Program-made: the position numbers and the translations under genes
Source of the DNA: Cyanophora paradoxa CCMP329
Taxonomy: Eukaryota; Plantae; Glaucophyta
Length of the DNA: 64,000 nucleotides
NCBI GenBank assembly: GCA_004431415.1
Contig: QPMI01000534.1
Location: forward strand, 235,099-299,098
Direction: 5' to 3'
The notes under the pieces: model-generated
The model's database searches: none
The model's input: the letters and a program-made list of their open reading frames with translations, nothing else
What the model was told of the DNA's origin: nothing
In this document: positions 9,501 to 64,000 of the stretch, one piece after another
Layout of the letters: each line of letters opens with the position of its first letter
Numbering within the stretch: the first letter of the stretch is position 1

Positions 9501-9817
9501 TCGGCGGGTGCCCAGGCCCGTGCGCATTCCAACAGCGACGAGCCGTCCGCCTGCGCCGCCGACGGGCCGAGCTCCAGCGCGAGAGAGGTCCAAAGCGTGC
9601 ACGAGTAAAGGTCCTTCGGATCGGACGCCTGCGCCAACATTGGTCACCCCAGAGGTTGACATATTCAAAGCTTGCAAGAGCCTTTGCGCACGTTTGCACA
9701 CGGGTGAAGCGGCGGGGCCGGCGTCGGCGACGGCGAAGGGGTGTACGACGGCGAGGGGCTCGCGGAGGGGGAAGGCGCTCGCGACGGGGTGACGGAGGGC
9801 GAGGGGCTCGGGCTCGC

Positions 9818-9854
<37 letters not shown>

Positions 9855-23316: not shown

Positions 23317-24981
23317 ATGATGGCGCGCCTGGTAATTGCAATTGGCCTGATAACTATAGTCGTGCTGATTTGCGGCGGATGCGTGAACGGTGCGCATGCT
23401 GTGCCACGCCTTGACCGCGCCGACCCTAGGCCTAGGCCTGTCACAGTGTTCTCGATGACTTTTGTGACCCCTCACGCACAGCGGAAGTCGTGCTCGATGG
23501 CACTGCAGCTGGCAGTGCATATGGGAGCGCTGACTACGAAGCGCATGCGCGCGCCGAGGCGACGGGCGGCGCTGGCGCCGCGCGGAGAGTTCTGCAGACA
23601 GCCACTACGGGAAGCGATGCCTACTCGGGCGCTCTGTGGGGTTCCCTCGCGCTGGAACTTGGCCCTTCGGCAGCGCAGGCGGACGACACATCGCTGTTAG
23701 AATGCTTGCGGGCCTGGGCCCCCGCCGACGGCGCCCTCGCCTGCACCTTCAGCCCGCGGCGCCGTAACGCCGCCCTCGCCGTCGAGGCCGCCGCGTGAGC
23801 CGCCCCGCGCTTTTCAGGTTGCACCCCGCGCCAAACCGATCGCGACGGGCGCGCAGGTTCGCGGTGCAGCTGACGAGCGGCGAGGCGAGCCGGACGGTGT
23901 TCCTGTCGGGGGCGAGCGCGTCGTCGTTCGCGTTCTCGGTGCCGGTGGCGGGCGTGCTCGGCCGGGCGCAGCTGCGCGCGTACCGAACGGCGACGGGTCG
24001 CGTCGTGGGCCGCCCACTCGACGTCGACATCGTCGGTGCGACTGGATCCGGATCGATCCCGCCCGGTCCTCGCGGGTTGTGCGGGTGTCTGATCGGGGGC
24101 TCGGCCGCCGGCAGGTACTCCGGACGCAACGTCGCAGCTCGACTGCGGGGTGCGGCTGCAGGCGGCCGGCGGGCCGGTCCGCTGCAGTGAGCCCGCCCCC
24201 CTCCTGCATCTGAGCGCGCGCGCGCGTTGCACTGACGTATTGTTGTGCAGCGTTGTACCCGCGGTCGATGGGGCGGGCGGTCGGAGTGGCGCTGGCGTCG
24301 GTGCTGGTGAGCGGAGTGAACGGGACGGCACAGCTGGCGGCGGGGGGCGCGTCCTCGGACGTGGCGGGCGTCGGGGGCATCGGGATCACGTTCTGGCTGG
24401 CGGCGGGGGCGAACGCGAGCGGCGGGGCGGTGCGGGCATTCGTGGGGCCAGTGGCGCTGTACCGCGAATTCGCCTTCTACGGTGCGTCCGCCGCCGCCAC
24501 CCTGCATACCATTTCCATCACGCGCTGGCAACGTTACGCTCTCTTCTGACACTTGGATTGATGCAGAGGCAGAAACGACTCCGCTGCTGGCGATCGCTCC
24601 TTCGCCGATGGCGTCGCCATCGCCCTCGCCGACTGCGAGCGCGAGCCCGTCGCCATCGCCGTCAGCGACAGCGAGCCCTTCGCCGTCGCCCTCCAGCACG
24701 CCGTCCCCGTCCCCGTCGCCATCACCGTCGGCAAGCCCGAGCCCATCGCCGTCGCCCTCGGCAAGCCCGAGCCCGAGCCCGAGCCCGTCGGCGAGCCCGA
24801 GCCCGAGCCCAAGCCCGTCGCCGTCGCCATCGCCATCGGCGACGGCAAGCTCGAGCCCGAGCCCGTCGGCGAGCCCGAGCCCGAGCCCGTCACCATCGCC
24901 ATCAGCGAGCCTGCGGCCGTCACCGTCTGCGAGTCCGTCGCCAAGCCCGTCGCCGTCGCCGTCCCCTTCGCCAAGCATGCG

Positions 24982-25012
<31 letters not shown>

Positions 25013-26465
25013 GCGAGCCCGAGTCCTTCTCCCTCGGTCACCCCGTCGCGAGCGCCTTCCCCCTCCGCGAGCCCCTCGCCGTCGTACACCCCTTCGCCGT
25101 CGCCGACGCCGGCCCCGCCGCTTCACCCGTGTGCGAACGTGCGCAAAGGCTCTTGCAAGCTTTGAATATGTCAACCTCTGGGGTGACCAATGTTGGCGCA
25201 GGCGTCCGATCCGAGGGACCTGTTCTCGTGCACGCTTTGGACCTCTCTCGCGCTGGAGCTCGGCCCGTCGGCGGCGCAGGCGGACGACACATCGCTTTTA
25301 GAATGCGCGCGGGCCTGGGCCCCCGCCGACGGCGCCCTCGTCTGCACCTTCAGCCCGCAGCGCCGCAACGCCGCCCTCGCCGTCGAGGCCGCCGCGTGAG
25401 CGCTGGCCGCCCCACGCTTCCCGGGCCGCGCCTCGCGGGCGACAAACGGGCGCGCAGGTTCGCGGTGCAGCTGACGAGCGGCGAGGCGAGCCGGACGGTG
25501 TTCCTGTCGGGGGCGAGCGCGTCTTCGTTCGCGTTCTCGATGCCGGTGGCGGGCGTGCTCGGCCGGGCCCAGCTGCGCGCGTACCGAACGGCGACGCGGC
25601 GCGTCGTGGGCCGCCCACTCGACGTCGACATCGTCGGTGCGACCGGATCCCGCCCGGGCCTCGCGGGTTGTGCGGGTGTCTGATCGGGGCCTCGGCCACC
25701 GGCAGGTACTCCGGACGCGACGTCGCAGCTCGACTGCGGGGTGCGGCTGCAGGCGGCCGGCGGGCCGATTCACTGCAGTGAGCCCGCCTCCGTCCCGCGT
25801 CTGAGCGCGCGCGCGCGTTGCACTGACGCATTGTTGTGCAGCGTTGTACCCGCGGTCGATGGGGCGGGCGGTCGGGGTGGCGCTGGCGTCGGTGCTGGTG
25901 AGCGGAGTGAACGGGACGGCACAGCTGGCGGCGGGGCCCGGGGGCGCGTCCTCGGACGTGGCGGGCGTCGGGGGCATCGGGATCACGTTCTGGCCGGCGG
26001 CGGGGGCGAACGCGAGCGGCGGGGCGGTGCGGGCGTTCGTGGGGCCGGTGGCGCTGTACCGCGAGTTCGCCTTCTACGGTGCGGCCTCCGCTGCCGCCCT
26101 GCGTTGTTTCGCGCCTTGAGACTAGAAATCGCAGGAATGTCAGCTGCATCAATTTCTGTGCCGGCAATCGTTCCGACGCCGTCGTCTTTGCCGTGGCCAT
26201 CGGCCCTAGCAAGCCCCACTCCGACCCCACTGAGCACGCCGCTGCCGTCGCCATCGGCGAGCCCACGGCCGAGCCCGAGCCCGAGCCCAAGCCCGTTGCC
26301 GTCGCCATCGCCATCGGCGACGGCAAGCCCGAGCCCGAGCCCGTCGGCGAGCCCGAGCCCAAGCCCGAGCCCGTCGCCATCGCCATCAGCGAGCCTGCGG
26401 CCGTCACCGTCGGCGAGTCCGTCTGCAAGCCCGTCGCCGTCGCCGTCCCCTTCGCCAAGCATGCG

Positions 26466-26496
<31 letters not shown>

Positions 26497-29400
26497 GCGA
26501 GCCCGAGTCCCTCGCCCTCCGCCGCCCCGTCGCGAGCGCCTTCCCCCTCCGCGAGCCCCTCGCCGTCGTACACCCCTTCGCCGTCGCCGACGCCGGCCCC
26601 GCCGCTTCACCCGTGTGCAAACGTGCGCAAAGGCTCTTTCCAAGCTTGATTAATATGTCAACCTCTGGGGTGACCAATGTTGGCGCAGGCGTCCGATCCG
26701 AGGGACCTGTTCTCGTGCACGCTTTGGACCTCTCTCGCGCTGGAGCTCGGCCCGTCGGCGGCGCAGGCGGACGGCTCCTCTGTGTTGGAATGCGAGCGGG
26801 CGTGGGCCCCTGCCGACGGCGCCCTCGCCTGCACCTTCAGCCCGCGGCGCCGCAACGCCGCCCTCGCCGTCGAGGCCGCCGCGTGAGCCGCTGAGCCGCC
26901 CCGCGCTTCCCGGGCCGCACCCCGTGTCCAACCGACGGGCGAGCAGGTTCGCGGTGCAGCTGACGAGCGGGGAGGCGAGCCGGACGGTGTTCCTGTCGGG
27001 GGCGAGCGCGTCGTCGTTTGCGTTCTCGGTGCCGGTGGCGGGCGTGCTCGGTCGGGCTCAGCTGCGCGCGTATCGCACAGCAACGGGGCGCGTCGTGGGC
27101 CGCCCGCTCGACGTCGACATCGTCGGTGCGACCGGATCCCGCCCGGGCCGCGCGAAGCGTGCGCGTGTCTGATCGGGGGCTCGGCCGCCGGCAGGTACTC
27201 CGGACGCGACGTCGCAGCTCGACTGCGGGGTGCGGCTGCAGGCGGCCGGCGGGCCGGTCCGCTGCAGTGAGCCCGCCCCCCTCCTCCATCTGAGCGCGCG
27301 CGAGCGTTGTGCTGACGAATTGTTGTGCAGCGTTGTACCCGCGGTCGATGGGGCGGGCGGTCGGAGCGGCGCTGGCGTCAGTGCTGGTGAGCGGCGTGAA
27401 CGGGACGGCGCAGCTGGCCGTGGCGGCGGGGCCCGGGGGCGCGCCCTCGGGCGTGGCGGGCTTCGGGGGCGTCGGGATCACGTTCTGGCCGGCGGCGGGG
27501 GCGAACGCGAGCGGCGGGGCGGTGCGGGCGTTCGTGGGGCCGGTGGCGCTGTACCGCGAGTTCGCCTTCTACGGTGCGCAGTTGGTTTGCATTCTGATTT
27601 GTTTGCGTGTTGTTAATCGCATGTGCTTAGCGCCAGTGTGGGGTCTTCCAATCATTAATCCTTTCGGCCCGGACCCATCTCCCTCGCGCATTCCATCGCC
27701 GTCGCCGAGCCCGCGGCCTTCGCCAACAGCGAGCCCGTCGCCCACAAGCACACCGTCGCCGAGGCCGAGCCCGTCGCCATCGCCGACAGCGAGCCCGAGC
27801 CCGTCGCCCACAGCCTCTCTGTCGCCAACGCCCTCGCCATCCGCCCCGCCGCCTCCCGTCGCCGTCCCACCGCCTCCAACCGCCACGCCTTCGCCTTCTC
27901 CCCTTGGTGCGCTTCCCGCTCATACCTGTGATCCCGATCGCGAATGCCGTTTCTGACATGCGCTGCAGTGTGTGGCACGCCTCCCTCGGCCGTCCAAGCG
28001 CGGCTCGTCGGGACCGACGCGGTTGAGCTGGCCTGGAGCCCCGCTCTGGCCGCACCAAACGCAGGCTGCCCGTCATTCGTCGTCGGGCTCTTCGCGACGG
28101 GCGGCGAGTCCTCCCCTGCAGCCGCCGCTGCGCTTTGGCTATCAAAGCCTCTCTGGACGTACGGCTCGCCCGCGTTCCGCCTGACCCTCTCGGACGCTAC
28201 CGGCATCAGCGCTGGCGTGCTCTACACCGTCCACGTGGTCACCGAGTCAGCATCCCTCGGCTTCGTGACCGGCTCGTCCGCCTCGGCCCTTCCGTCCACC
28301 GTCCTGGAGTTTCCGCGTGAGTAGCCCTCAGTGCGCTGGGTTCCCACTTTACAGATTCCGACGTTCATGCACAGTGACGGAGGCGTCGACGGTTCAAACG
28401 TCCTATGAGGTCCGCGCCGCCAGTGTCGGGACCGAGTGGGTCTACATCGTCTGGGGTGCGCGGAAATGTGTTTCGTGGTTTCGCCCCCGCTGATCAGAGA
28501 ACTCATTTGGCGCGGGCAGAGTCGTTCACGTTCAGCGCGGGGGCGTTCACGGGCGCGCGCCCCGCGTCGGGCTCCGAGGCGCTGGCGCTCGTCTTCGGGG
28601 CCGGCTGGGCCGAGCCGCGCTTCGAGGTCGCCGTCACGTCGGGGGACGGCGCACGGCTTGCGTGGGGCGGCCTCGCCGGCCCCGCCCACAACGCGACGGG
28701 TCTGCAACCCGGCGCGACGTACGGCGTGGCGGTGCGGCAGGGCTGGGTCGGCCTGTCGGACTCCTTCCTCGTCGACAGCGTCCTCGCACGCACCGCGTCC
28801 CCCCCAGCTGCCTCTTCAGGTACAAATCCGAAATGGGCTTCGAACATATAATTACAAGCTCACTGAGCGGGCCACAGCTGCAGGCAACTCGACGGCGGCG
28901 GCTGCGGAGGAATTCGTCGAGATCAGTCTGGCGCTGCTCTTCTCCGACACCGAGCTGGCAAACCTCGTCGAGCCGGAGGCGGAGGCGGAGGCGGGCTCCG
29001 GGGCGGACTCGGGTTCGACGGGCTCTGGCTCCGGCACGGGCTCCGGCTCTGCGTCGGGATCGAACGCGAATTCCACGTCCACGTCGCCGACGACGTCGAC
29101 GGGCGGCGGCGGCGGCACGTCCACCGGCACCACAGGCGGCGGCACCGCCGCCAGCGCCAGCACCACCGCCACGGTCGCCTTCTCGATCACATTCAACGTG
29201 CCCTGCTCCGACCTCACCGTGCGCCCGATCACCCTGTCGGATACCAATTCGCATATGCATAATTTTAAGTATAAGGTGGATGTTTATCGCTGATGGCGTT
29301 TCTCTGTGCAGGGAATGCTGGCGAAGCGAATGGTGCAGGCGTTGACTGAGGCGCTGGACCTGGAATCCGGCCAAGTCCGCTTCACCGGCATCCGTTGCGT

Positions 29401-31194
29401 CTCATCTTCCACCACGAGTACTGCCCGCGGCCGCCGCCTCGCGGCTGCCGCGACGTCGACCACCGGCGGCGACCGCGTGCTGGCGGACTTCGTCGCGCGC
29501 GCCTCGGCGGAGGTGCAGTCGGCCGGCGCCGCGTCGACGGCGGCGGAGCTGAAGCGCATCGAAACGGCTCTGGCGGCGCCCGTAGTCGCGCAGAGCCTCG
29601 CCGAGGGCGGCGCCCCCGTCGTCCAGCTCGCCGTCAAGCCGGCGGCGACCGCGGCGCCCGCGCTGAATCCCGCCTCGCCCTCCGCGTCGGATCCGCGAGC
29701 TCGTCGGGGGTACCGGCACGAGCAGAACGACCCGGTGCCGGCGCCGGCGCCGGCGCCGGCGCCCGGCGGGCCAGTCGCCGGGTCGCAGCCGGATCAGAAA
29801 TCCGAGTCGGGCTCGGGCGGCCTGCCCGTGGCGGCCGTCGGCGGCGCCGTGGGCGGCGCGGCGGCTCTGGCGGCGGCCGTCGCCGCCGCCGTCGTCCTCC
29901 GCCGCCGGAGGCGGCAGCAGCGCTCCGCCTCCGACCGCGGGCTCCGACGCGGCAGGCGCCCGTCCGCCGCCCATCGACATCGACGTCGACGGGGCGGCCC
30001 CGACGTCGATGCGCGATATCAACGTTCACGTCGACGCGGCCACGGGCGCGACTCGAGCTCGAAGCAGGCGCGGGCGCTCTCAGCATTCTGATGGAGGAGA
30101 CGCCCGCCCAGGTCGGGGCCCGCCTCCGCATGCAGCTGGCGCCCCCCGCGCCGGCGCCGGCGCAGCGTCGGCGTTGCCGTCGCCGCGCGTGGCGGTGGCG
30201 CTCGCGGCGGAGGACGCGGCGGAGTGCGTCGACCTCTACGAGGAGCCGCCGGCCCCGACGGCGAAGGTGGCGCGGGCGTCGGGGACGGGTCAGGGCAGCA
30301 GCAGCGGCCCGGGCGGCGCCGTCATCGCCGCTTCGTCGCCGCCTTCCGTCCCGAAGGCCGCCTCGACCTCCGCCTCCGCCTCAGCCTTCGCGGCGCCGCG
30401 CGTGCCCCCGCTGAAGATCGACCGCGTGGAGCTGGATCCATCGCCCGAGCCAGGAAACGCGAATTCCAAGTACGCAGTGTTTTCTGCGCCCCGCGCTCGA
30501 ATATATTTCGTTTGGCTGACGCGGCGCGACGCGCTGTGCAGGCGGCCGCAGCTGGCGGCGCTCAGCATTCTGGTGGACGAGAGCCCGGCCGAGGCGGGCG
30601 CCCGCCTGCGGAGGGCGGGCACGCCCTCCCCCCGCGTCGAGGGCCGCCCAGCCGACGACGCCGACGACGACGACTGCGTCGACGTGTACGATGACGCGAG
30701 GGCGCCGGCGCCGGCGCCGGCCGCCGCTGCGCCGGCCCCGGCCCCGGCCCCGGGCCGGGCCTCGAGGCTCCGGGTCAAAGTGCCGCCGGCGATCGCCGGC
30801 CTGGCGGTCCGAAGCGGCAGCGGCAGCGCCTCCCCATCGCCGCGGAGGCTCGAGGAGATGTGCGTCCACTCTAGATCTAGACTCCGTATATTTTGTTGGG
30901 CGGCCCCACTGATCCTCGCCGCCCCCGCCTGCGCGCAGTCGCGCCGGTCGGGATCGGGATCGGTCGGAGAGTCCGAAGGCGGCGGCGGAGCTCTGGCGGG
31001 ACCCGCACCCCAGTGGCCCCCCGTGCGCTCTGTGTTCTGGCACGGATCGCAGGGGTACCCAGTGCTGATCGGGAGTCGGCGTGCGCAGGGCCGGCAAAGG
31101 GGGGCAGGACGGCAGGCCCCCAATTCCCCGCGGCCAGCCGTCGCCGCCGGCCGCGGCCGCGGCCGTCACCGTCAACGTGAACCTCTCCTCGTGA
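23317..31194 (+). CDS. Large modular type-I cell-surface glycoprotein/receptor, copy B (3 double-Ig-like modules); inverted paralog of 3569-11455
   Basis: Signal [24 protein letters not shown]; modules at ~23600-24480, ~25200-26080 and ~26690-27570, each followed by (SP)n; FN3-like exons at 27970-28820; RGRRL; [34 protein letters not shown] at ~29820-29910. Apparent 1-bp indels at ~29910-30170 (sequencing error or decay). The 3' end is approximate. Confidence 0.75.
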
Positions 31195-50431: not shown

Positions 50432-52350
50432 ATGCGGGCAGTGAAGAAGCTCATCACGTCCATGAAGATGAAGGAGGGCGGCGGGTTCATCGTGAGGCGG
50501 CCCGTCGGCTCGGGCGGGCTGTCGTCCGTCGATCCGCTCCTGATGCTCGGTGCGCGTTTGCGTTTACAACGTACACCTGTGCCTGACCGCTCCTGCAGAT
50601 CACATGGTTCGCCGGCCCGTTTGAGCCGTCCGGCGCCGCCTGCGCGCTCCGACGCATTCCGCCGCTTGCAGGGTCCGGTGGAATATGGACCTGGCGAAGC
50701 CGTTGGCGCCCCCGACCAGTGCGCAAGCGCCGCCCTCGCCGCGCCCGATGCGACGACGTAATATGACGTCGACACGAATCGGACTGCGACCCGCCCCCGC
50801 GCAGCCCGCACCGTGGCCAGGAGACTGTTACGTACATTCTGTGAGCATCCGCGAAGCCCGGCGCGCCCCCGCGTCCCGCCGGACTCGAAACCGACGCGAG
50901 GGCCCGCGCCGGGCGGCGGCGCGCGCGCGCGCAGAGAGGGCGAGCTGCAGCACAAGGACTCCGCCGGCCACACGGGCGTCCTGCAGAGCGGCGACGTGCA
51001 GTGGATGACCGCCGGCCGCGGCGTCGTCCACTCCGAGGTTCCTTCCTTTCGCCCCCTCTTCCTTTCTATGCTCCTAGAGCTCAAGCCGCGACAGATGCCC
51101 TCGGATCGAATCATACGCGAGGGCGGCCGCATCGAGGGCTTCCAGGTCCGCGCCGGATTCGAACCCGCGCTCCGGTCCCCGCCAAATTCGCCGAGCCGCC
51201 GCGCCGCAGCTCTGGGTCAACCTGCCCCGCGTGGACAAGATGATGCCCCCCCGCTACCAGGTGCACATCGACATCAGCCTCCGCCCCTTCTTCCTTCTTT
51301 TGAGCATGTACCCCTCATACAGGACATCCGGGCCTCGTCGATCCCCACGGCGACGTCTCCGGACGGGAAAGTGACGGTGCGGCCCCGTACCCCCCCCTCA
51401 CCCCCCCGCCCCCTTGACAGACACTTATCTCAACATCTCCTCAGGTTCGGGTCGTGGCGGGGGAGAGCATGGGCCATAAGGCTGTCATCGACACGCGTAC
51501 CCCCATCATGTGCGCTGCAGCTCCAGGGGCCGCGCCCCGTAATCGTACCCGTGCTCGTCGGTGACCCGTACCCCGCAGGTACCTCGACATTGCACTCGGT
51601 ACCCCCAAGCCCCCGCCCCCTGCCGCTCTGTTCCCCGCCGATCCGCTCGAATCCCCCCGCAGCGCCTGGGGCAGAATTCACGCAGCCGGTACCCCCCGAC
51701 TTCAACGCGTGTGCACCCCCCCTGCCCCAGGAATCCACCCGCGCGGATTCGAACCCGCGCAGCTTCGCGTACGTCTTCCGGGGGGCGGCCCTCTTCGGTC
51801 CGGCCGGCCAGGCGAGCGAGCCCCTACCCCCGCACCGGAAACTGTACCCCCACACCCACCCCTAATCGTGTACCCCCAGGAGCGGGAGGCGAAGGAGAGC
51901 GATGCCGTGGAGCTGGGGCCGGGCGACTCTCTCCGCATGCTCGGCGGCGACCAGGCGCGCGTACCCCCCTTCATCTTCCCGCCTTCCTCTCCTGAGCGTG
52001 TACCCCCCTTCCAGGGCGCACGGCTGCTGCTCATCGGGGGCCGGCCCATCAACGAGCCCGTCGTCTGGCATGGGCGCGTACCCCCCTTGAAGCAAGTGCC
52101 GCTCGCGTACCCCCTCCTAACGGACGCGCAGGCCCTTCGTGATGAACGCGCGGGAGGAGATCGAGCAGGCCATGCAGGTCACCGCGTACCCGCCTCTCCA
52201 CACGTGCCCCCCTTAAGACGCATCGTACCTCCCCTGCAGGACTACCGAGCTGGGCGGCTGGGGGCGATCGAGGGGGCGGAGGAGCGGTACCGGCAGACGG
52301 AGGCGGCTCGGGCGCGGGCCGCCGCCTCCGACAAGCTCTCTACTCACTAG
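50432..52350 (+). CDS. Pirin family protein (about 16 exons)
   Basis: [15 protein letters not shown]|[22 protein letters not shown]...[32 protein letters not shown]|PFVMN; stop TAG 52350. Confidence 0.92.
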
Positions 52351-52650
52351 CTAGCTGTAGCTCTAGCCGGCCAGGCCTACGTATACCGGTCCGGCAGGCC
52401 TAGGGGCCGGCCGCGTTCGAGTTCGCGAGCTCGCGGCGACTTGCGCCGAGTCGCGCGCGCGCCGGCGAGGCGAACGATCCCTCGAGCTCGCGCCCTCGTG
52501 CCACGGTGAACGCGACAGGCACCTTAAGCTTAAAGCTTGCCGGCGCCGCTCCGACTCAGGGCCGAGGCTCATGAACGTAGTATACGCCTCGGAGCCTAGT
52601 ATACGTAGCCTCGTACGCGTACAACGGTACTAGCTAATACCGTAGTACTA

Positions 52651-52888
52651 CTGTAGGAATGCTTAAATTGGCGCGTAGTCAAATTGCCGAATTCGACCAA
52701 AACCGGAATTGCCGTGGCGATAAATTAAATATTGCCGAAACTCTGGATTTCTTCTATGGCGCCATACAAAATCGGTCGTTTAGCCCTACCCCCTGAGAAT
52801 TGCCGTGGCTTAAAATTGCCAAATTCGGCCTCTCGGCAATATACGTATACGGCAATTTAAAACATCGGCTAAAAAAGCAATCCTACAG
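52651..52888. mobile_element. TA-flanked MITE (238 bp)
   Basis: TIR CTGTAGGAATGCTT / AAGCAATCCTACAG (1 mismatch); TA on both sides; internal ATTGCCG repeats. Confidence 0.75.
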
Positions 52889-52953
52889 TACTAGGCTATG
52901 CCATGATGATATGTACCGTACGCGTACTACGGTAGCCTAGGCCTCGGTAGCTA

Positions 52954-53212
52954 CCGTGTAAGACTTAAATACCGCGTCACAAATTAATTAGCGCGTTCCA
53001 AAAATTTGGGCCCGATTTGCGCTTTACTAATTAAAGTTACCGCGCTACCAAATTACCGCGCCGCGGGCCCGCGGCGTTCCATGATGAACTTCCATCGTCT
53101 TCGAAAATGTATTATTTGTTAGCAAAGGGGGTAATTCTGCGCTACCAAATTACTGCGTTCTAAAAATTTTGAGCGCAGTAATTTGGTAGCGCAGTAGTTA
53201 AGTCTAGGGCGG
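52954..53212. mobile_element. Probable degenerate MITE
   Basis: AGACTTAAATACCGCG (52961) inverted to CGCAGTAGTTAAGTCT (53190), 14/16 match; internal CTACCAAATTAC repeats; right TSD not clear. Confidence 0.5.
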
Positions 53213-55178
53213 GGGGAGTCCTGAACGAACATACAGTAGTTCGAACGAACCTGAACGAACAGCCATTTTGCTGAACTGAACGAACATGAACAAAGCGGCC
53301 GCTGTTCACTGAACAGGGGAAGATTACTCTAGCAAAGCGTACGAGTAATCTGCTTTCTTCTAGCGAAGGCCGAGCCGAACGCGAAAGCAGCTTGCACGAG
53401 CCGCGCGCCTGCGCATGCGCATGCTGCTTGCGATCGCGATCATCGGATCGCGATCGGACGCACGGCGTACCCAGATCTGCGAGCCAGGGCGCGGCGGTAC
53501 CCGCATATATATGCATCTGCGATACGGGCTCGCTGTACCCGGGCCACCGGCTCAGTCGTCGGGTACCCGTCGACTGCCCGATTTGCCGGGCGTGTTGCCG
53601 ACCCTCCCACCATCCCCTACATCACCGAAGCTTTACGTTCGATCGAAGCCCCGCCGAGCATTTACAAGCCCTCGGCCTAGGCCTTGCAATTGACCAGCTA
53701 CTTTTCATGGTCTTGGATCGAATTCGATGTCAGGTTTGCTGCGGCTGGCAGCTGCAGGCTGCCAGGCTGCCAGCTGCAGGCCTAGGCTGATCACCACGGG
53801 GTTTATTTCTTCCCCTGGTCTATTTTTCATGTACAGCAGTTTATCACTTCACAGGCTTAGCCTAGTAGGAAACGCGTTTCCTTAGGTTGCTCAGCATCAC
53901 TAGCTATAGTTTTCAACCTTAGTTCCTTTCATTCCGCCGTCCGAGATCTAGAGAGGTTGTTTTCCGGTTGTGACCTTCCCACACAGCGCTTCAAAAGAAT
54001 TTATTAGCGCCAAGTCGAAATTCATTTATTCCCCCCCCAAAAGGGGTACGCTAGAGTCTAAGCGCTAGCCTCAGCGTTAAGGCATGGCGACGGCGACCTC
54101 CACCCCATCACCTCTAGCTCTGGCAGCGAGCAGTATTGCCTAGCTAACATCGATTGGATGGGTCCTCGCCACCTGAGGCCGCCCGGATCGCCCGCCCGCC
54201 CAGGAATCGGCTTCTGAGCGGCCTGACGCCAGCGGCGCATCCGACGTATCCACCGACTAGCCGGCATGGCGAACGCTCTTTCCGATTAGGGCGAGATCGG
54301 CGCGCTGTAGCTAGAACGGCTGTCTCACGCACCACTTTTTGAACCTTGGTCACTGGGGGAGCGGGGACATGGAAATCCGGCAATGTACAGCGCTCTAGCT
54401 ATCGCTTTTGACGCGTTCGCACTCGGTCGAAGCGCGCTAGCTAGCCGGGATGGTTGTACGACTTCACGCCATAGTAGCCCGGATTCTCCCCCCCCCCTCG
54501 ACTTGGCGGAAAAATATTCTTTTGAAGCGCTGTGCCAGGGCCCGGAAGCTACGGCTTCACGCCTTCCGCGGGCCTAAGCGCAAGCTTTTGGCTGTTCATG
54601 CGGGGGTTTATCTGCTACGTATACGGCGGATCTTTATTTTCCAGTTGGCTCAAGAAGCTGTACCCCCCTCGAAATCGCTTACCCCCTGCGGGCGCGATAT
54701 GAGTACCCGGGCAGCAAATGCGTACCCCCCGGCACACGGGGAGTGAAGAGATATCCTCCCCAACCACGCCCACGAGGCAATGAGTGGTCTACCTTTTCGG
54801 GCCCTAGGCCTGGGCCCTCTCGGCGGCCCCTCCTTTGGCGCTGCGCGCCCTTGGGACGCGGCCCAATTGCAATGAGGTGCCCCGCACGGCCGCGGGGCTC
54901 TACTTGCTGCCGGCCGGACCACCGCGGGGCGGCCGGTTCTCTTCTTACCCCCTCATCCTTCGAATTCCTTGCGGCGGCCAGAGGCCGGCACGCTGCGGAC
55001 GCGTTTGGCTGCGGCCGTAAGCGTGGAAGAACAACTTGTCAGCAAGGGGGCCCCCGGGGCCCCGGTTTCGGGCGATTTTCGGCACCGAAATTGACACCGA
55101 ATTCGAAACCGTCGGAAACAGGCCTAGGCCTAGGTGATTTTGGGCACGGAAATTAAACCGTCGGAAACCTGTTCAAGG

Positions 55179-55366
55179 TAGAGATGGGGCTCGAGCCGGG
55201 CCGGCTCGAGCCGAGCCGAGCCGAGCCGGGGGGGCGGACCGGCTCGAGCCGGACTCGGTCGGCTCGAGCCCACGGCGAGCCAAGCCGCTCGAGGGCTACA
55301 GCGCGGCCGGCTCGAGCCGGGTCGAATTTTGTTAGGGGCGAGCCGGCGAGCCGGCGCGCCGGCTAG
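55179..55366 (+). repeat. hAT-like terminus with GAGCC/GGCTC subterminal repeat array (partner end not found)
   Basis: Begins TAGAGATGG, followed by many GGCTCGAGCC/GAGCCG copies in both orientations. Confidence 0.5.
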
Positions 55367-55828
55367 ATTATATTCCTAGTCCTGGAATATTCGCCAACGG
55401 CTCAATTTATATATACGTGGGCGTCGACCTGGAATCCGCGAACCGCCAGCTCTCGAGCTTTATGAATCCATTGTTAACCCTCGGAGGTTTGCGTGAGTCA
55501 CGCATCACGGAGATTTGAGTGTTATATTGCGATCTCGTACACCCGACACTAACAGGGGGGGCTAGCACTAACCCACGCGGGGCAGTAACAGTCAGCGTAC
55601 CCCTCGCGCGGACACCAACAAGCACAGCTGCTGACAGACTGCCTTACCCCTCTGGGGCCCCGCGGGGCTAACTCCACTGGGGTGCTAACTAAGTGCTGTA
55701 CCCCTCTCGGGCCAGCTTCTGATTCGGCCCAACATTTTCTGAGCCTAGGGCAAAGTGAGCTTAGCTTGAAGCAGCACGTCAAGTGCGGCAGCGCTAGCCC
55801 AGTAGTAGCCAGCGGCATCATTTGCAAT

Positions 55829-56436
55829 ATGTCTGGATCATTTGATTGGAATGCAGCTTTTATCTTCGCCCTTCTCCCAAACGGGGGCTACACGAGCTTT
55901 ACAGTAGACAAGCGACGGGCACCAGCGCTCTGGATGTACCAATGGCAAGTAGCCTCTGCGGATGGACAGAGCTGGCCGTACACAGTATTGCCAGACGGGA
56001 AGGTGGCCTACGCTCATCATTTTCTATTCGGGTACCCCCTCGGCCTGCCCAACGACGACTGCGCGTCGACAGCATCAGCGGGTGCAAGCTGGACCTGCGC
56101 AGGGAGAATCTACGGCTCATGGACTGCGGAGGTCGGCTTGGGGCGGTTCCTGTGGCAGGCGACAAGCTTCCAAGCAACAAAGGCAAGTGTCTGACAAAGA
56201 GGAGGAAGCGAGCCTACGAACAGAGCCAAGTCCAAGCAATGATTGACGAGCTGTCTGCAGAATCAAAGGAAAGCCGCTACTGGCGCGTCTCTTTTCGCCC
56301 AGGCCAACCGGCAGTGATAGAGTACGGCCTTGCCGCTCATGATGCGATAGCAAAGGCGCGCAAGATAGCTGAAGCAAAGGATGTGCACTCTGTAAGTCGC
56401 CCAGCTGCAGCTGTACATGTTGTGTCCACCTCATGA
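55829..56436 (+). pseudogene. Degenerate HNH_3-type endonuclease-like gene, frameshift near 56056
   Basis: FTVDKRRAPALWMYQW...YAHHFLFGYP in one frame, continuing in another frame as LRVDSISGCKLDLRRENLRL (cf. VDHINGxKLDNRRENLR). Confidence 0.65.
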
Positions 56437-56655
56437 AAAGTTCTAATAGAAGTTTCCAAGAGGTGGTCACATCCCGCAAGTCTGCAGAGCTCGAGCTCTT
56501 GCCTGTACCCCGGTCCTCTAGATGCCATGATATTGAGTACCCCTAGCAGGGCTGTGATCCCCCAACCCCTCCTGCCCGCCAGGCCGTCGGTTGTGCTGCA
56601 CTCGACTTTTTCTGAAGCACTCATGCATATCAACTGCGAAATCAAAACGAACATT

Positions 56656-59600
56656 ATGCACGTCAACTTGCTAGACGAGCTGCCCTTCGCCGAGGAGGCA
56701 GATCTAGATGCCGAGGAAGAGGATCTCTTTGCATGCTTCCCGTTCGTCTCGGTCTCCAAGGCCTGGTCGCCTGCGATGGGGGTGGTCTACGCTTTGAGCC
56801 TCGCCCCGGGCGTGAATCCTTGCCAGGTCGCGCCCGGCGAGTCGGCTTGCGATGCCGCGAAGGCTGTCGTGGGCAGGACGGGGGCGTCAGCTTCTCCGCG
56901 AGCTGGAGGATGGACAGAGCGCGCACTTCGTTCTGCAGGGCGCCGAGGCCTCCACCATCTTCTCTTGGCTCTTCGGCGGCCTCGCGCCTGGGTCGGAGCT
57001 CCGCCTCTGCATCGAGCCTGACGGGGGGTAAGCCTGCGCCGAGCTAAAGGGGCTCCCGCTGTAGGCTTGCCTGCAAACTTCTTGGAAGATCTGCCCGCGG
57101 ACTTCTTTGACGACTTGCCCGAAGAAGGGACGGAGGCGGCGGGCCAGCGGAGAGGGACCGATGGAGGGACAGAGGAACAAGGCGCCGGTGAGAGGGGTAC
57201 AGAGCAGGCCGCTGGGTACAGGTCGCTGGAGACCAAGCCGCGGGCGAGATCCTCAAGCGGGCCCTCGCTCTCCTGCGGGGCAGCATGTCGGTTCGGGGCG
57301 AGCTGGAGAGGGCGGGGACGCGCTCGGGGTGCACCTGCGCCTGGAGTCGTCGAGGGTGCTGCAGGCGAGGACGGAGCCCGACGGGTCGCTGGCCTTCGAG
57401 CTCGAGGTGGAGGCGCGTCCGAACTCCCGCCTGGAGGTCCAGATCTGGAACTTCAGCCTGCAGGCGAGGCTCTCAGATGGAGGCGGCGGCGCCAAGACGA
57501 AATCCTACGCAACGGACCTTCGGCGCGGCGTCTCCCTTGACACCGCCCTCCCGTCCCTCCTCCTCGCCCTGCGATCCGTCGGCCATGCTCCATTTGCGGC
57601 GAGGGAGGTGGACGAGCGGTACCTGAGCCGCGAGCTGCTGGAATCGACCTTTGGCGAACTGAAGCCCGATCCCGGGGCGCCCCGCCGGATCGACGTGATC
57701 TGCAGCGGGCTCAACACCGGCAAGACGAAGGCGCTGATTGAAGCCTACGTCCGCCCGGCGCTCGAGTTGAAGCGCAAAATCCTCGTGCTCACCTGCCGTC
57801 GGGCCTTCTCTCGCGACCTCAAGCGCCGCCTCGACGAAGCCTCCCTCCCCTCGGTCGCCGTGCTCTACTCGGACGTCTGGCGCCCCAAGGACCCCGAGAG
57901 CGCTCACGGGACGTGGGGCTTCCGCGATCCGAGGATACAGGTCGTCATCTGCACGATCGATTCGGCTCACAAGGTGCAGGACGACTGGCAGGGGCTCGAG
58001 GACCTGGGCGAGGGCGGCGGCGGGCGCCTCCTGGTCGTGCTCGACGAGCTCTCCTCCCTCACGCGACACTTCACCTTGAGCTCGACCTTGGAGCCCGTGG
58101 CCGGTGGGCTGGGGGCGCGGAGCCTCCCCCGCAACCTGCGTTGCGCCCGTCTCTGGCGGGGAATCGAGGGCGCACAGGAAATCGTCGCGCTGGACGGCTA
58201 CGTGAGGCCCACGGACCTCGCTTTCCTTGGCAAGTCGGCGGCAGCAACGGGGGCTCGGCTCGCCCTCCTATTCAACCATCGGCGGACCTGCGACTGGCGG
58301 ATGCGCCTGTCAGACAGCCCCACCGCCGTCGAGCGTGACCTGATGTCAAGGTGCCGCCCCGGCGGCCTGCGCGCCATGATCATCGTCGAGACAGCAGGCC
58401 GGGCGCAGGCATTGGCAAGCGCACTTAGGAAGCAGGCCGCCGAGATCTTGGAGCGAGATCCAGCCTGCGCCCCCGGGCCCTTCACAATTGGAATTGTCAT
58501 AGGGCAGGCTAGAGATAAACAGTTCGATTACAGTGACGACGGCAGGGTCCACGTGAAGAAGCTCGATCTGGCCGAGGAGGGCGGCTACAAGACCTGCGAC
58601 GCGGTCATTGCGACGTCGGCCTTGGGGGCGGGCGTAGACTTCTCGGATGCGCACTTCGACAAGATCTACGGAATCTTCGACGCCAAGATGCCCCTACTGG
58701 AGGCCGACGACATCGTACAGCTGCTGTTTCGAGTGAGGCGGCTGCGGGGCCAGGGCGAAGGGACAGGGGTAAAGGGAAGCGAGCACCTGCTGCTGTCCGT
58801 TCGGCGGTGCAGCGTGACGCCCGTTCGCGCCTCTGATGCTGCACGGCACTGGCGCGAGTCAGGCGACACCCCCAACGGCCCCGGCCTCCCCACCGAGGCG
58901 CCGGCAGTGGAGACGTACCTGGATCTGAAAGCCGAGCACAACGGAGACAGGCGCGCCTCCATGCCCTCCAGGCACCTGAGCGTTGCCGCCCGGCTCCGCC
59001 AGCTCTCCATCCGTCCTTCTGAGAACCTGTGGACGACCGCAGATCAGGGCAAGCCCTCGGCGAGGAAAGAGCAAGAGCGACGGAAAATGGAGATCGACTG
59101 GGTGCACAAGGCTGCACCGATGGACGTGCCGCAGATCCTGGCCCTTGCCGAGTCCTGGGATGGCTCACTGGAGAGCACAGCGTTCGAGACCGTCCTCTCG
59201 CTGGCGCGGCAGTCAATTGCGGATTTCATGGTGCTAGACCTGGCGACGCTCACTGCGGGGGACGTCGAGTGGATGTGGGAGTCACGCTACTCTCTTGGCC
59301 GCAAGGCGACGGCGAGCCTTGTGCTCCTGGACAGTCAGAGCATCGAAGAAATCGAGCCGCCGAGCGAGCGGCTTTACCTTTCGAAGCTCGTGGCCGTATT
59401 CAGGGCGATTGGCTGGACGGGCGAGGGTGACCGAGCAAAGGACGTCCTATGGGTCGATAAGCTGTGTCGGGGCTTGGCGTCGGAGCAAGGCCGAGCGGCT
59501 TACCGCGAGCTGCAGAGTCTGGACCCGAAGTGCCCGCCCTTCGATCCCGCTAGGTACAAGTCAGAAAGGGCCGTCGCAATGCAGGCCCGCCGAGTGGCAA

Positions 59601-59875
59601 GGTACCTGTTCGAGACGTGCAGGGGTGTCAGGAAGGTCTCAAGCGTGCGTGATGGAGGAGCGATGCAGAACAGAAAGCGCAAGTACCTAGCATGCGAGGG
59701 GGATCCGATGAGCGATGTGCTGGGCAGACAGGCGGGCTCAGCGGCGCAAACGTCAGTCCTTCACTATGCAGACGCGTACCGGGTTTTCGTGAAGTGCTAC
59801 GATCTCATACGCCTGCGCTCGGAGGTGGCACTTGCTGGCACAGTTAGAACGAGCGCAATGGAGGTAGGCAAGTGA
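56656..59875 (+). CDS. Herpesvirus UL9-like origin-binding SF2 helicase
   Basis: CSGLNTGKT, VLTCRRAFSRDL, VICTIDSAHKV, VVLDELSSL, IVALDG, ATSALGAGVDFSDAHFDKIYGIF and IVQLLFRVRRL correspond to UL9-family motifs I-VI in an uninterrupted ORF from ~57320. The N-terminal part needs one intron (~57028-57064) plus frameshifts at G-runs, so the start is uncertain. Confidence 0.85.
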
Positions 59876-60024
59876 TTAGTGTTCGAGAAACGGTCCAATG
59901 TGTACATCTGACAATTAAGACAAGTGAGAACATCTGAACATCTAAACATTTGCTCTGCGAGTGTGCTGCATTCTGTTACATCTGCACCGTAAGTTACAAG
60001 GCGATACAACGAAATTTGCTTGAC

Positions 60025-63000
60025 CTAGGCCGTCGGGATCTTGGCGCCAAAAGCCCGCCAAACGCGCCCTGTGCTCCCACCCCGCTTCGACCAGACAACG
60101 CCCGCTGCCTCGTAGGCGCCCTTGATCGTCGTGACGCTGGAGTTGAGCACGTACTTCTTTGCAGCGGCGTCGATATCTGCAGCCTTGAAGTAGTTGAGCG
60201 CGCGCAGGTACTGCTTGAAGTGCTCCTGGAGAGCGGGCTGATCTGCCGTGTCACTCGGCTGCCCCGTGGCGATGGTGCCGATCCACTGCAAGCAATTGCA
60301 GAACGTTAGAATGTGAACACAAAATGAGCAAAGGCCGAGAGCGGCACCTTACTCCAGCAGTACTCAATCGATTTGACGGTGCTGTTGCGCTCAGTCGCCT
60401 GCTGCTGTGTGCTGAGGATCTCGCTGCGACGAAGTGCAATATCGGGGCAGTAGAATTGGGAGGCCGACGACAAGGGATCGTAAAGCTTCTGGAGGCCGCC
60501 GCCGTCGATGAAAGAGAGGAGGACGCGACGAGAAATGATCATCTTGGCAAGCGCTACGCCAAGGTTGTAGGGCTGCAGGCAGCTCTCCTTGAAGTTAGAC
60601 TCGGCTTCGACCTGCGGCCAAGCGATCATGATTGAGACCAGCCAGATCGGAAGATCGGAATCACCGGCTTGTTGAAGGGAAGGTACAGAAGTCGGCGGCT
60701 CATGTCGCCCCCGCAGTCCTTGTAGAGGTGCTGAGCAGCGAAAACGTGAGCTCAAAGCCGAGCTTAAAGCCGAGCTCAAAGCCGAGCAAGACACACCTGA
60801 GAGAGGCCCGTGGGGTTGCCAGCCGTCCAGACAACAGCCCGCAGGCAGGCCTTGAGCGGGGGCTTGTTCTTTGCCTCGATGCTGACTGGATCGTGCCCGC
60901 TAATCGTCTTGATCTTCGACTGCAGCGACTGGCAGGGCAAGAGGATGTGAGCTCAAGAATAATAATTGACTCTGGCAAACGGACCTTGAGCTGCGTGGAG
61001 TTGCCAACTTCGTGAATGAAGAGGGCAGAGACAGGCTCGTGGCAGTCGTAGATGCAAGAAAGCATGAACTGCGGCGAGGAGTCCTTCGATGGGGTCTCGC
61101 AGGTGATGAGCTTCTCGACGACCGCCTGCAGTGTGCTCTTGCCGGTGTTGCCGAGCCCCTCGAGGTGCACAATCTTCGAAGGCGCAAAACGTTAGAGAGC
61201 TGAATGGGAGGTCGAATAGAGAGGAAGTTGAATAGAGAGCGGAATAGAGCGCAGCAAGTCAGCGCACCGCGTCCTGCCTGGGATCACTGGCGATGCCGAT
61301 GCCACACACGCCGTAGAAGAAAGTGTCATTGATCCCTTGATCTCGGCAGATCTTGTCCAGCGGGCAGAGCATGGCCATCAAGCTGTTGTAGTCGTACTGA
61401 CAGCCAGTTGCGTCCGCCAAGCAGTTGGGAAAGTAACTGCACGGGCCGCGCGCCCCTCAGAGAGTTAGAGATAAAGGGAGAGAGCAGCCAGCTCACCGAT
61501 AGCCATAGGAGAACGACTCGGAGTTCTCCCACGAGGCCGGAATCTCCATGACAGAGGGAGGGTTCGCGCCGTTGTAGCGGTAGAGCACTCCGGGATCGCG
61601 GATGTTCACTGCGACGTCGTCGAAGCTGACAATGAGATCGGTGGTCTTGACCTGCTTAACCCAAGCGGGGTCATGCAGGATGGAGGCGACGATCTTGTCG
61701 AGCAGCTCGGCGCGGCTGGAAGCAAACACGTCTGACTTGCTGCGGCTGGATGACATGATGCGGGGCCGCTTGGGCTCGTGCTCGCGTGCGTCTTCATCCT
61801 CCTTGATGGCGAATGCAATCCGGTCGAGAATACGGTTGGCGTACGCTCGGACTGTTGCGTGGCCCTTGAGGCCGTTGAAGGGCGTGTAGCTGTACGTCGG
61901 GCGCCGATCGGATGTGAAAGCAAGTTGCTGGGCGAAAGGAGGGAGCTCGCAGTCAGATGGTATCAAGGAGAATCGGTGGATTGCAATGAGACCTAGAGCT
62001 CACCAAAAGCTCGCCCCGGCGGGGATCGAATGCCATGAACTCGTCGTCCAACTGCTGACGCACCGCTGCCAGGACGCCAGTCTTGATGGACCACTCGGCA
62101 AGAAGGGCATCCGTGGCCTCCGGTGAAAGCGGCTCAACGGGCGGGGCCTCTGCGATGTTTGAGATTGCACCCTAGGAGAAGGAAACGAAAATCAGTCGTA
62201 GTCTTGAGAGGCGGGCGCAAGTCTAGAGAGGCCGCTTTAGAAAACTGGGGCGAGAGAAGGCGGAGCAGACCTGGGATGAGGCGCCCAGCAAGACTGCGGG
62301 GTCGAAGCACGCAGCCCAGTCCATCAGTGCATGCTCACAGGCCTCCTTCGGGCAGACATCTTCGATGCGATACTTCGAAGACACCCCGTTGGGCTTGGCG
62401 GCGAGGAGGAGAGTGAAGCGCTTCGGCTGGCGGTAGCTGAATGCCACGTTGATGATGACTTCGTATGAACGCTCGTTCTCATCTGCGGCACAGGTGCCAG
62501 TGAGATTGAGAGCAAGTTCATGCAAGGGATAATCTAGATAGAGACGAGAAAGACAAAGCTGCGCGCATACCAAGTACATCCATGGTCGTCTTGAACTTGA
62601 GCATCGAGATGCCAACGGTCGCCTGGGGGCGGCGGACACACTGGCCCCTAGTGGACTCGATGGCATGCAAGCGGACGGGCCCAGAGGCGAAGTCGCAGGT
62701 GCTGTTCGGACGCGAGAGGTGCATCGTGAGGACCTTCTCCGTCAGGGCGACCGCCTGCTTCAGGCCGTTCACGGCGTACAAGGGCTCCCAAGCCTGCGCA
62801 CGGGCCAGAAGTGAGCCGCCGGCGCATGAATGAAAAGAAGGGAAAAGGGAGAGAAAGAGGGGAAAGCGAGCGCGCAGTCTGAAAGTGCGCACGGGCTCGT
62901 CTGAATCCGGCTCATTCGCTGCAGGGGCCGCGGGCTTCCCTGGCAGCGAGGGCTCCGAGGGCGACGGGGACGAGATCACGGCGGGCGACGAGGTCGGGCG

Positions 63001-63200
63001 CAGCGGCGTCGAGCTCGGGCCTTCAGCGTCGTTGAGCTGCCTTCGAGATGGAGTGAGCGTCGCCGAGCCCGGCGTTCTGCTGCACGGATCCGGGCCCCGT
63101 GAGCAGCGGGCGCTGGGCGGGATTGCGGCATGGGTGCGCACTTCGACTCGGCAGTAGCGGAGGCGGGAGAGACGCGAACGAATGCACTGCGAGCGTGCTG
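60025..63200 (-). CDS. D5-like superfamily 3 helicase, about 11 exons
   Basis: Spliced D5_N-like LIVSFDDVAVNI; Walker A HLEGLGNTGKST; Walker B LFIHEV; B' KIKTISGHDPVSIEAKNKPP; motif C VWTAGN; Arg finger MSRRLLYLPF; wHTH-like C-terminus GRVWRAF; stop TAG 60025. Start codon uncertain. Confidence 0.85.
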
Positions 63201-63814
63201 CTCCATGCAATCGGCCTCACTGCGCACATGGCAGGTGAGCATGGAGCTGGCACTCGGGCTGTGGTTGCGAGAAAACGAGGCAAATCCCGCGCCCCGGCGG
63301 ACCAGCGACTCGCGTGCACCTTCTTAGTCGATAGAGACGCAAAGCGGATGGCGCGCTCGCAGCCTGGATCGTCCGGGCTCACCGCCGACCTGCGCCCCGC
63401 CGAATTCAAAATCCCGCGACAAGGGTGAGCGGGCGCCGCGCAGGTCGGCTTCAAATGCTTCTAGGATGAGGCTCTGAGGTCGCAGGATCGGCGTGCACCT
63501 CTGTGAGGCGGAGAGAAGCGAAGGTCGGTGCGCGACTTGCCCTCGAACCTTGCGGCGGGCGGCGGGCGACCCTGCGGCGGCACAGTGCGATCGCCGGTCA
63601 AGAGAGCTTTCCGTAGCAACTTTCCGGGCTTCGGGAGCCCACCGTGGCGCGAAATGGCGGTCCGCGGTCCGGAGCACCCCAAGGACGGCGGCGGCGCGAC
63701 CGGCGAGGATGCCGACGAGCTCAGAGCTACCTGCTCTATCGCCTGCTGTGCCGGAGCGACGGCGGGCTCGCTAGTTCAAGAGCAGCTCGAAGCTAAGGGG
63801 GAAGACTGTGGAGG

Positions 63815-64000
63815 GGGGTACGTGTTATGTCCAAATGTCCAAGTGTCCAAGTGTCCAAGTGTCCAAGGCCTAGGCCTAGGCCTACGATGAGCTAGCGCTA
63901 GCTATAGCGGGGTACATGTTATGTCCAAATGTCCAAATGTCCAAATGTCCAAATGTCCAAGGCCTAGGCCTATAGCTACGATGAGCTAGCGCTATAGCTA
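63815..64000. repeat. 94-bp tandem repeat, each unit with five RTGTCCAA 8-mers plus palindromes
   Basis: Units start GGGGTAC at 63815 and 63909; (A/G)TGTCCAA x5, then AGGCCTAGGCCT and TAGCGCTA; array truncated by the window end. Confidence 0.9.

Follow-up and report, generated by a model that had tools for sequence, protein, structure and literature searches.

What kind of mobile DNA carries two replicative helicase genes, tail to tail, in an algal nuclear genome? The question is raised by the right-hand end of a stretch of 64,000 nucleotides from the glaucophyte Cyanophora paradoxa CCMP329 (contig QPMI01000534.1, positions 235,099 to 299,098, the whole of which is called here the window), where genes for a superfamily 2 (SF2) helicase resembling UL9 and CyRepA1 and for a D5/P4-like superfamily 3 (SF3) helicase lie between an HNH-like open reading frame (ORF) and an array of 8-bp repeats (Table 1). 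The original prediction took this group for the initiator, replicative helicase and origin of an integrated virus or a self-replicating transposon; that this is mobile DNA in several copies, as opposed to a host locus, is borne out below, and the rest of that proposal is putative. The visible part of the element covers positions 55408-64000 (about 8.6 kb, its left portion), the right end lying beyond 64000. On a judgement evenly poised between right and wrong, it is read here as the left-hand part of a DNA element that is dispersed in several copies, that would be capsidless, driven by its helicases and self-copying in the nucleus with host polymerase, and that apparently represents an undescribed family of helicase-encoding mobile DNA. 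The evidence consists of several copies with a sharp common left end, of linkage between two helicase genes whose ATPase motifs are intact, and of a spliced SF3 transcript.

Table 1. Features of the visible part of the element, in positions of the window.
Feature	Position	Strand	Description
Left end	55408-55582		Junction TATATA/CGTG at about 55410-55416, plus conserved subterminal stretch
HNH-like ORF	55829-56436	+	Predicted nuclease-dead; 202 aa, read through
Spliced antisense RNA	56128-57459	-	Opposite the HNH-like gene and the 5' portion of SF2
UL9/CyRepA1-like SF2 helicase	56623-59875	+	About 1085 aa; no intron seen
Spacer between convergent stops	59876-60024		149 bp; five ACATYT, two minus-strand TGTAA
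D5/P4-like SF3 helicase	60025-63643	-	About 790 aa, 12 GT-AG introns; start uncertain
Array	63812-63994		Two 94-bp units, 91% identical, with five RTGTCCAA 8-mers each; CTAG palindromes

C. paradoxa is available in culture, and its genome has been assembled from long reads. Copies were studied through the names of EukProt gene models and through contigs of public sequencing runs aligned on the window. X1 and X3 are DNA runs, the RNA-type status of the other runs rests on spliced joints, contig depth serves as a crude guide and not as a copy number, and X1 is possibly the window's own source. Models of the SF2 helicase occur on at least 26 contigs overall, a count that omits unnamed duplicate accessions: five contigs carry the window's lineage (83-95% identity) and 21 further named contigs carry three distant lineages (41-53% identity). 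A tree of 14 chosen rows, from which shorter or redundant models were excluded and whose midpoint root is for drawing only, separates the four lineages with support of 98-100 and has near-zero branches within the three distant ones. The distant lineages (P0004-P0028, P0034 and P0036) are apparently more numerous than that of the window, and stretches of them run deep in RNA-type runs (104-825 at the joint 57829-58031). On three of the 21 distant contigs two overlapping SF2 models stand two gene numbers apart, which suggests a short unit. Two distant models (P0027 and P0006) have foreign N-termini of 100-135 aa that found no useful match in profile searches and may be pieces of a neighbouring gene in those elements. 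The SF3 helicase gene accompanies the SF2 gene closely: all four SF3 loci adjoin an SF2 model at the next or the preceding gene number (g17489/90, g23512/11, g21178/79 and g23478/77). Single-copy, unlinked, host-like helicases, the outcome that would have spoken against the original prediction, are not what these counts describe, and no homolog was found in other eukaryotes.

The copies begin at one point. Contigs of X3 (DNA) and X15 diverge from the window leftward of 55410 and 55408, respectively, and run into two other flanks; all three flanks read TATATA before CGTG, and rightward of it the sequence is common. The comparison of flanks for shared termini that had been proposed for this locus has in this way yielded a left end common to three different flanks, the right end being out of view. 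A higher-copy relative (about 88% identity) spans 55465-55582 at depth 619 in X1, near the 669 of the distant SF2 stretches and far above the 14-15 found by the host gene, which suggests that what the distant lineages have in common with the window's is this end and not the array; at the array, depth is 137 against about 620-670 for the distant lineages, as fits a short array confined to the window's lineage. DNA contig depth is 14-15 in the flank by the host pirin gene and 55-210 across 55609-64000. For the lineage-A contig at 55419-55561 the depth is 47.7 in X1, where the interior of the element has 61-63, and 603 in X3, where it has 561-628. As left-end depth is doubled in neither family and in neither DNA run, long identical terminal repeats are argued against, indirectly and from the left end alone. 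A separate observation concerns X3, where element contigs of 55150-57400 (561-628) are about 9-25 times deeper than the adjoining small-repeat contigs (25-66), a ratio larger than in X1; the excess may come from GC bias, from free copies or from the copy number of the strain.

The SF2 gene is longer than it appears in the window. Its open frame as it stands (57065-59875, plus strand) is 100% identical to the EukProt model tig00021037_g17489, which bears the label Cyanophora paradoxa, and the real start of the gene lies near 56623: breaks of 1 bp at 56879, 56895, 57022 and 57213 are filled in the contigs of both DNA runs, a fifth (near 57316) was located from the copies P0002 and P0012, and the mended frame runs free of stops for 1085 aa, matched at 87-96% by P0002, P0012 and P0003. 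Between 55400 and 64000 the window has many such 1-bp deletions relative to every aligned contig, and real ORFs are split by them, so that other apparent pseudogenes in the assembly may be artefacts. The protein has intact copies of motifs I, Ia, II, III, V and VI. The best-scoring named family is CyRepA1 (NF042913; E 6.3e-15, residues 144-495 of P0001), and the Pfam family Herpes_ori_bp is matched at E 7.3e-5 with 21.5 bits (cutoff 20) over 58 residues only; the distant copy P0034 reaches 29.7 bits over 130 residues, both P0001 and P0034 exceeding the Pfam cutoff. Chains of UL9 from herpes simplex virus 1 (HSV-1) are the best sequence match in the PDB (E 0.006-0.008), and motifs I and Ia align with that protein. 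In the ESM Atlas clusters of Herpes_ori_bp and CyRepA1 rank top (0.97-0.98), and Foldseek, run on a low-confidence model (predicted local distance difference test, pLDDT, 45), places origin-binding helicases of nucleocytoplasmic large DNA viruses (NCLDVs; E 2e-7, TM score about 0.2) and HSV-1 UL9 first. The description as a UL9-like helicase holds for the SF2 motifs and the Herpes_ori_bp match above cutoff, but CyRepA1 is the better-scoring family (6e-15 against 7e-5). The N-terminal 390 and C-terminal 350 residues or so matched no known domain in Pfam and further profile searches, the primase domain DUF3854 gave no match in P0012, P0002 or P0001 at E<=1, and beyond the helicase part no sequence similarity to the C-terminal domain of UL9 was found, with a fold model of pLDDT 45. 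By tblastn the protein has 17 weak matches among plasmids, 16 of them cyanobacterial, and none among phages.

The SF3 gene is spliced. Its joined exons reproduce the EukProt model g17490 except for the uncertain start, which that model sets at 63206. At least ten of the twelve introns appear as joints or split pieces among those listed from the alignment of RNA-type contigs, which carry up to three different study codes, whereas the listed joints are all missing from the DNA run X1; the other two introns (62483-62570 and 62794-62892) are predicted and consistent with g17490. The ten introns between joined coding exons average 75 bp, and the mean host intron length is given as 86 in the available part of the genome paper (PMC6704402). 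Several RNA pieces match the window without a mismatch, which indicates that transcripts come from this copy or from another with the same sequence; the element is transcribed at least over this gene. The protein is matched by DUF5906 (E 1.3e-5; 26.2 bits, slightly below the cutoff of 27.6), by TIGR01613, by the phage primase-helicase 7OLA (E 9e-4) and by four PHROG families, all family matches being confined to the helicase part, and it contains Walker A, Walker B, B', C and the arginine finger; the D5-like assignment is upheld by these matches and motifs. The two genes had also been described as tail to tail with some 150 bp between them, and the measured distance agrees. Outside the helicase no primase domain was detected in Pfam, PHROG, NCBIfam or the PDB. 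A single-sequence fold model was unusable (pLDDT 39), and the Foldseek matches obtained with it were discarded. Word-based protein searches gave no relative outside Cyanophora, and a search against plasmids gave one weak match. In both helicase genes the GC content at third codon positions (GC3) is 0.79-0.80.

The array, which is truncated by the end of the window, is real, as had been claimed, and far beyond chance: its longest perfect run of period 8 reaches 40 nt, and none of 1000 shuffles exceeded 20. Other copies also have it, since a diverged DNA contig spans 63276-63938. With the array placed upstream of the SF3 transcript, some 170 bp from its most 5' spliced joint, a promoter role is as plausible as that of an origin, and the word iteron is a label and not an observation; on sequence grounds a role as origin is putative.

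Relatives elsewhere are scarce. A HMMER search of 1.84 billion representative proteins with the SF2 protein returned five matches, all from Cyanophora, with no viral relative at E<1e-3; scans of IMG/VR with the SF2 alignment, the SF3 protein and the array pattern, and scans of metagenomes and GTDB, gave none, these being pattern-based and suited to close relatives only. No published description of the element was found in a literature that omits most subscription papers and Repbase, and the names of the five close-lineage contigs were not matched in the supplements of two other papers, one of which was available only in part.

How such an element might work can be outlined. The SF2 protein, whose gene is common to all four lineages, would be its replication initiator (Rep), by analogy with CyRepA1 of cyanobacterial plasmids, and would most likely recognise the conserved left-end stretch and not the 8-bp array, while the SF3 protein would act as fork helicase in the window's lineage. 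As neither helicase has a detectable primase domain, priming would be left to the host. The apparent absence of a long terminal repeat suggests a form that is probably circular, and copies would integrate anew at TA-rich sites by means of an unseen recombinase encoded further right or in trans, the dead HNH protein and the antisense RNA perhaps serving as regulators. Cooperation of the two helicases is putative, three related lineages having an SF2 gene for which no D5-like partner was found. A bolder version of this reading, which we advance tentatively and think more probably wrong than right, is that of a new class: a replicon that is integrated, has no capsid and relies on a plasmid-type Rep helicase of the CyRepA1/UL9-like kind. 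It would possibly derive from a cyanobacterial plasmid, be present as four lineages in one genome and be devoid of long terminal repeats, and one of its lineages would have acquired a D5-like helicase with an intron-rich gene, together with a dead HNH protein and control by antisense RNA.

The comparison with CyRepA1 (Slr7037 of pSYSA), an essential plasmid Rep according to the accessible text of PMC9978351, has two sides. The proteins are of similar length and agree at 39% over 69 aa in motifs V-VI, whereas in the element's protein the glycine of motif VI is replaced by a bulky residue, and DUF3854, present in the Nostoc protein, is not detected. CyRepA1 resides on cyanobacterial plasmids, whereas the element is nuclear and integrated and pairs its SF2 with an SF3 helicase. 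The SF3 protein, for its part, has the same motifs as the D5/P4-type primase-helicases (DUF5906, TIGR01613, 7OLA), but its gene has spliceosomal introns and the primase domain is not detected.

Several points weigh against the favoured reading. The right end and any mobilising enzyme are outside the visible 8.6 kb, and the arguments from depth carry the two reservations made above, on contig depth and on X1. The SF2 protein falls short of the curated CyRepA1 cutoff (55.1 against 200 bits) and the SF3 protein of that of TIGR01613 (E 1.1e-9), and the likeness to CyRepA1 and UL9 is restricted to the helicase core, so that Rep activity is putative. No D5-like partner appeared on the 21 distant contigs in word-limited searches (lengths 252-2000 and 432-1378), nor, in the same kind of search, an SF3 model on one of the five close contigs (tig21462). 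Lastly, Cyanophora is rich in loci of polinton-like viruses (PLVs): Table S1 of PMC10120064 lists 366 matches to capsid (MCP) genes in its genome, and among glaucophyte PLV-type loci the consulted table of PMC12220804 counts HNH_3 in 40 of 156 and D5_N likewise in 40 of 156, with PF02399 (Herpes_ori_bp) present in 15 of 34 streptophyte loci.

These last figures lead to the strongest rival, an improbable one in our judgement and yet one to be taken seriously: that the element is the left arm of a polinton-like or other mid-size DNA virus that has become endogenous. The genes for capsid, ATPase and integrase would then lie beyond 64000, and the helicases would be a replication module without family B DNA polymerase (PolB). 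Genes of all three types, HNH_3, D5-type and Herpes_ori_bp, are known from PLV-type loci, and the 34 streptophyte loci of the same source hold 11 D5_N and 22 tyrosine recombinases beside their 15 PF02399, as group totals and not as co-occurrence; the GC content of the region, too, is below that of host genes. Polinton-like and MELD viruses are likewise multicopy nuclear insertions with varied helicases and HNH genes, sometimes with Herpes_ori_bp replacing the protein-primed polymerase (pPolB). Yet the element's visible part shows no sign of long terminal inverted repeats (TIRs), left-end depth not being doubled, and within 55408-64000 no gene for a capsid, packaging ATPase, integrase or tyrosine recombinase was detected, as the original prediction had stated of capsid and integrase. 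Its SF3 gene has twelve introns, ten of them observed as joints, and such viruses are treated as intronless in the sections of PMC10120064 at hand. PF02399 occurs in none of the 156 glaucophyte loci of PMC12220804 (Table S6), against 15 of 34 in streptophytes, a comparison to be read with the annotation threshold not found in the part seen and with P0001 and P0034 passing the Pfam cutoff. The distant-lineage copies two gene numbers apart on three contigs also speak against a viral arm. Mriyaviruses (Yaraviridae and Gamadviridae) are polymerase-less nuclear viruses with a UL9-related SF2 helicase or an SF3 helicase with a degenerate N-terminus; as far as the accessible text of PMC11253617 goes, they have one or the other and never both, and an HUH endonuclease and a capsid are universal. 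The element departs from this one-helicase rule, with SF2 and SF3 adjacent at four loci, and neither HUH endonuclease nor capsid is seen in its visible part.

It is rather unlikely that the locus arose by duplication from part of a giant-virus or mirusvirus insertion, the genes of which gained their introns in the nucleus. The Herpes_ori_bp matches, the agreement with UL9 in motifs I and Ia and the best Foldseek matches, obtained with a low-confidence model, all recall UL9 and the NCLDV origin-binding helicases R8/pF1055L. The latter, however, carry an archaeo-eukaryotic primase (AEP) domain, of which none is detected in the element's SF2 protein, and no herpesvirus or NCLDV gene neighbour is in view within 55408-64000. 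Intron-rich mirusviruses exist, although no paper confirming this came up in our search. Giant-virus insertions have been reported in C. paradoxa, in the available portion of PMC12344493. A fragment of that origin accords poorly with the sharp common end, with four lineages of near-identical copies and with the lack of a viral relative in the protein, IMG/VR and metagenome searches described above.

Less credible still is the view that an ordinary DNA transposon, with its transposase or Rep located elsewhere, carries the helicase genes as passengers. The left flank is indeed rich in small repeats, one of them a TIR element for which there is an apparent empty site, and no mobilising enzyme is seen in the visible part, but the SF2 motifs are intact across four lineages down to 41% identity; a gene that is kept intact and always travels with this left end is easier to understand as part of the core than as cargo. 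Helitrons encode an HUH Rep fused to a Pif1-like SF1 helicase and have 5'-TC and CTRR-3' ends; a Helitron was rejected on account of the SF2 and SF3 helicases and the left junction. Domesticated host genes spread by segmental duplication are very improbable, their host-like introns, GC3 and expression notwithstanding, given the different flanks at one junction, the number of contigs and the missing homologs in other eukaryotes.

Two features of the visible part remain to be described. The frameshift in the HNH-like ORF is most likely an assembly error, because an extra G behind 56060 is present in five of five runs, including contigs otherwise identical to the window. Read through with X at that point, the protein aligns over 78 aa, at 27% identity, with a protein of phage DTL (pairwise E 7e-7); this partner was picked from a match at E 7, and its HNH_3 domain was confirmed separately. 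The VDHIN..DDNR of the phage is VDSIS..LDLR here (His to Ser, Asn to Ser, Asn to Leu). As the partner was chosen at E 7 and neither half of the ORF matches HNH models of Pfam or PHROGs, the HNH identity is predicted with moderate confidence; the dead HNH gene first proposed would owe its state to substitution and not to a frameshift. Its C-terminal part bears a putative resemblance to AP2-type domains. The antisense RNA has introns at 56864-56926, 57018-57070 and 57273-57334 (ends CT..AC or CT..GC), whose joints occur in two of three, three of three and three of three RNA-type runs and in neither DNA run, X1 or X3. A fourth, minus-strand protein gene was considered and rejected because this spliced RNA contains no protein-like ORF. 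On pSYSA an antisense RNA (asRNA1) lies upstream of the rep gene (PMC9978351, in the part available), a parallel that is only a lead, and overlapping transcripts are frequent in the Cyanophora genome as described in the accessible text of PMC6704402.

The surroundings are those of a repeat-rich host region. The nearest recognisable host gene on the left is the pirin gene (about 50760-52350), followed by small repeats: those at 52646-53196 have inverted arms and very high copy number (the contigs are about 2000 deep, those of the flank 14), and at 53982-54534 lies a small element with 37-nt inverted ends (89%), for which a DNA contig skipping 53978-54535 resembles an empty site. Separate from the element described here is a dispersed, palindrome-rich repeat at 55180-55380 (fold z -2.6) with a GC hairpin and CTAG/T at its end, a terminus that we presume to resemble the 3' end of Helitrons. 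Further left, 5000-11300 and 23500-29700 form a large inverted duplication with a gene of Ser/Pro repeats and internal repeats of 1.5-1.6 kb (84-99% identical). A search of 52000-64000 against Rfam gave no match, folding of the left end, array and spacer gave no strong structure (z -2.0 to +2.0), and an exact database look-up of six guessed ORFs gave no record.

The classes of eukaryotic DNA transposons are defined by the enzyme that mobilises them, and a family whose sole detected shared gene encodes a UL9/CyRepA1-type helicase would fall outside all existing transposon classes. Surveys that are anchored on capsid genes and use prokaryotic gene callers would overlook such an element; should it prove to be the arm of a polinton-like virus, it would still be an unusual, intron-bearing one. 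If the favoured reading is true, the element links the origin-binding proteins of herpesviruses and giant viruses, the Rep proteins of cyanobacterial plasmids and the mobile DNA of a eukaryotic nucleus.

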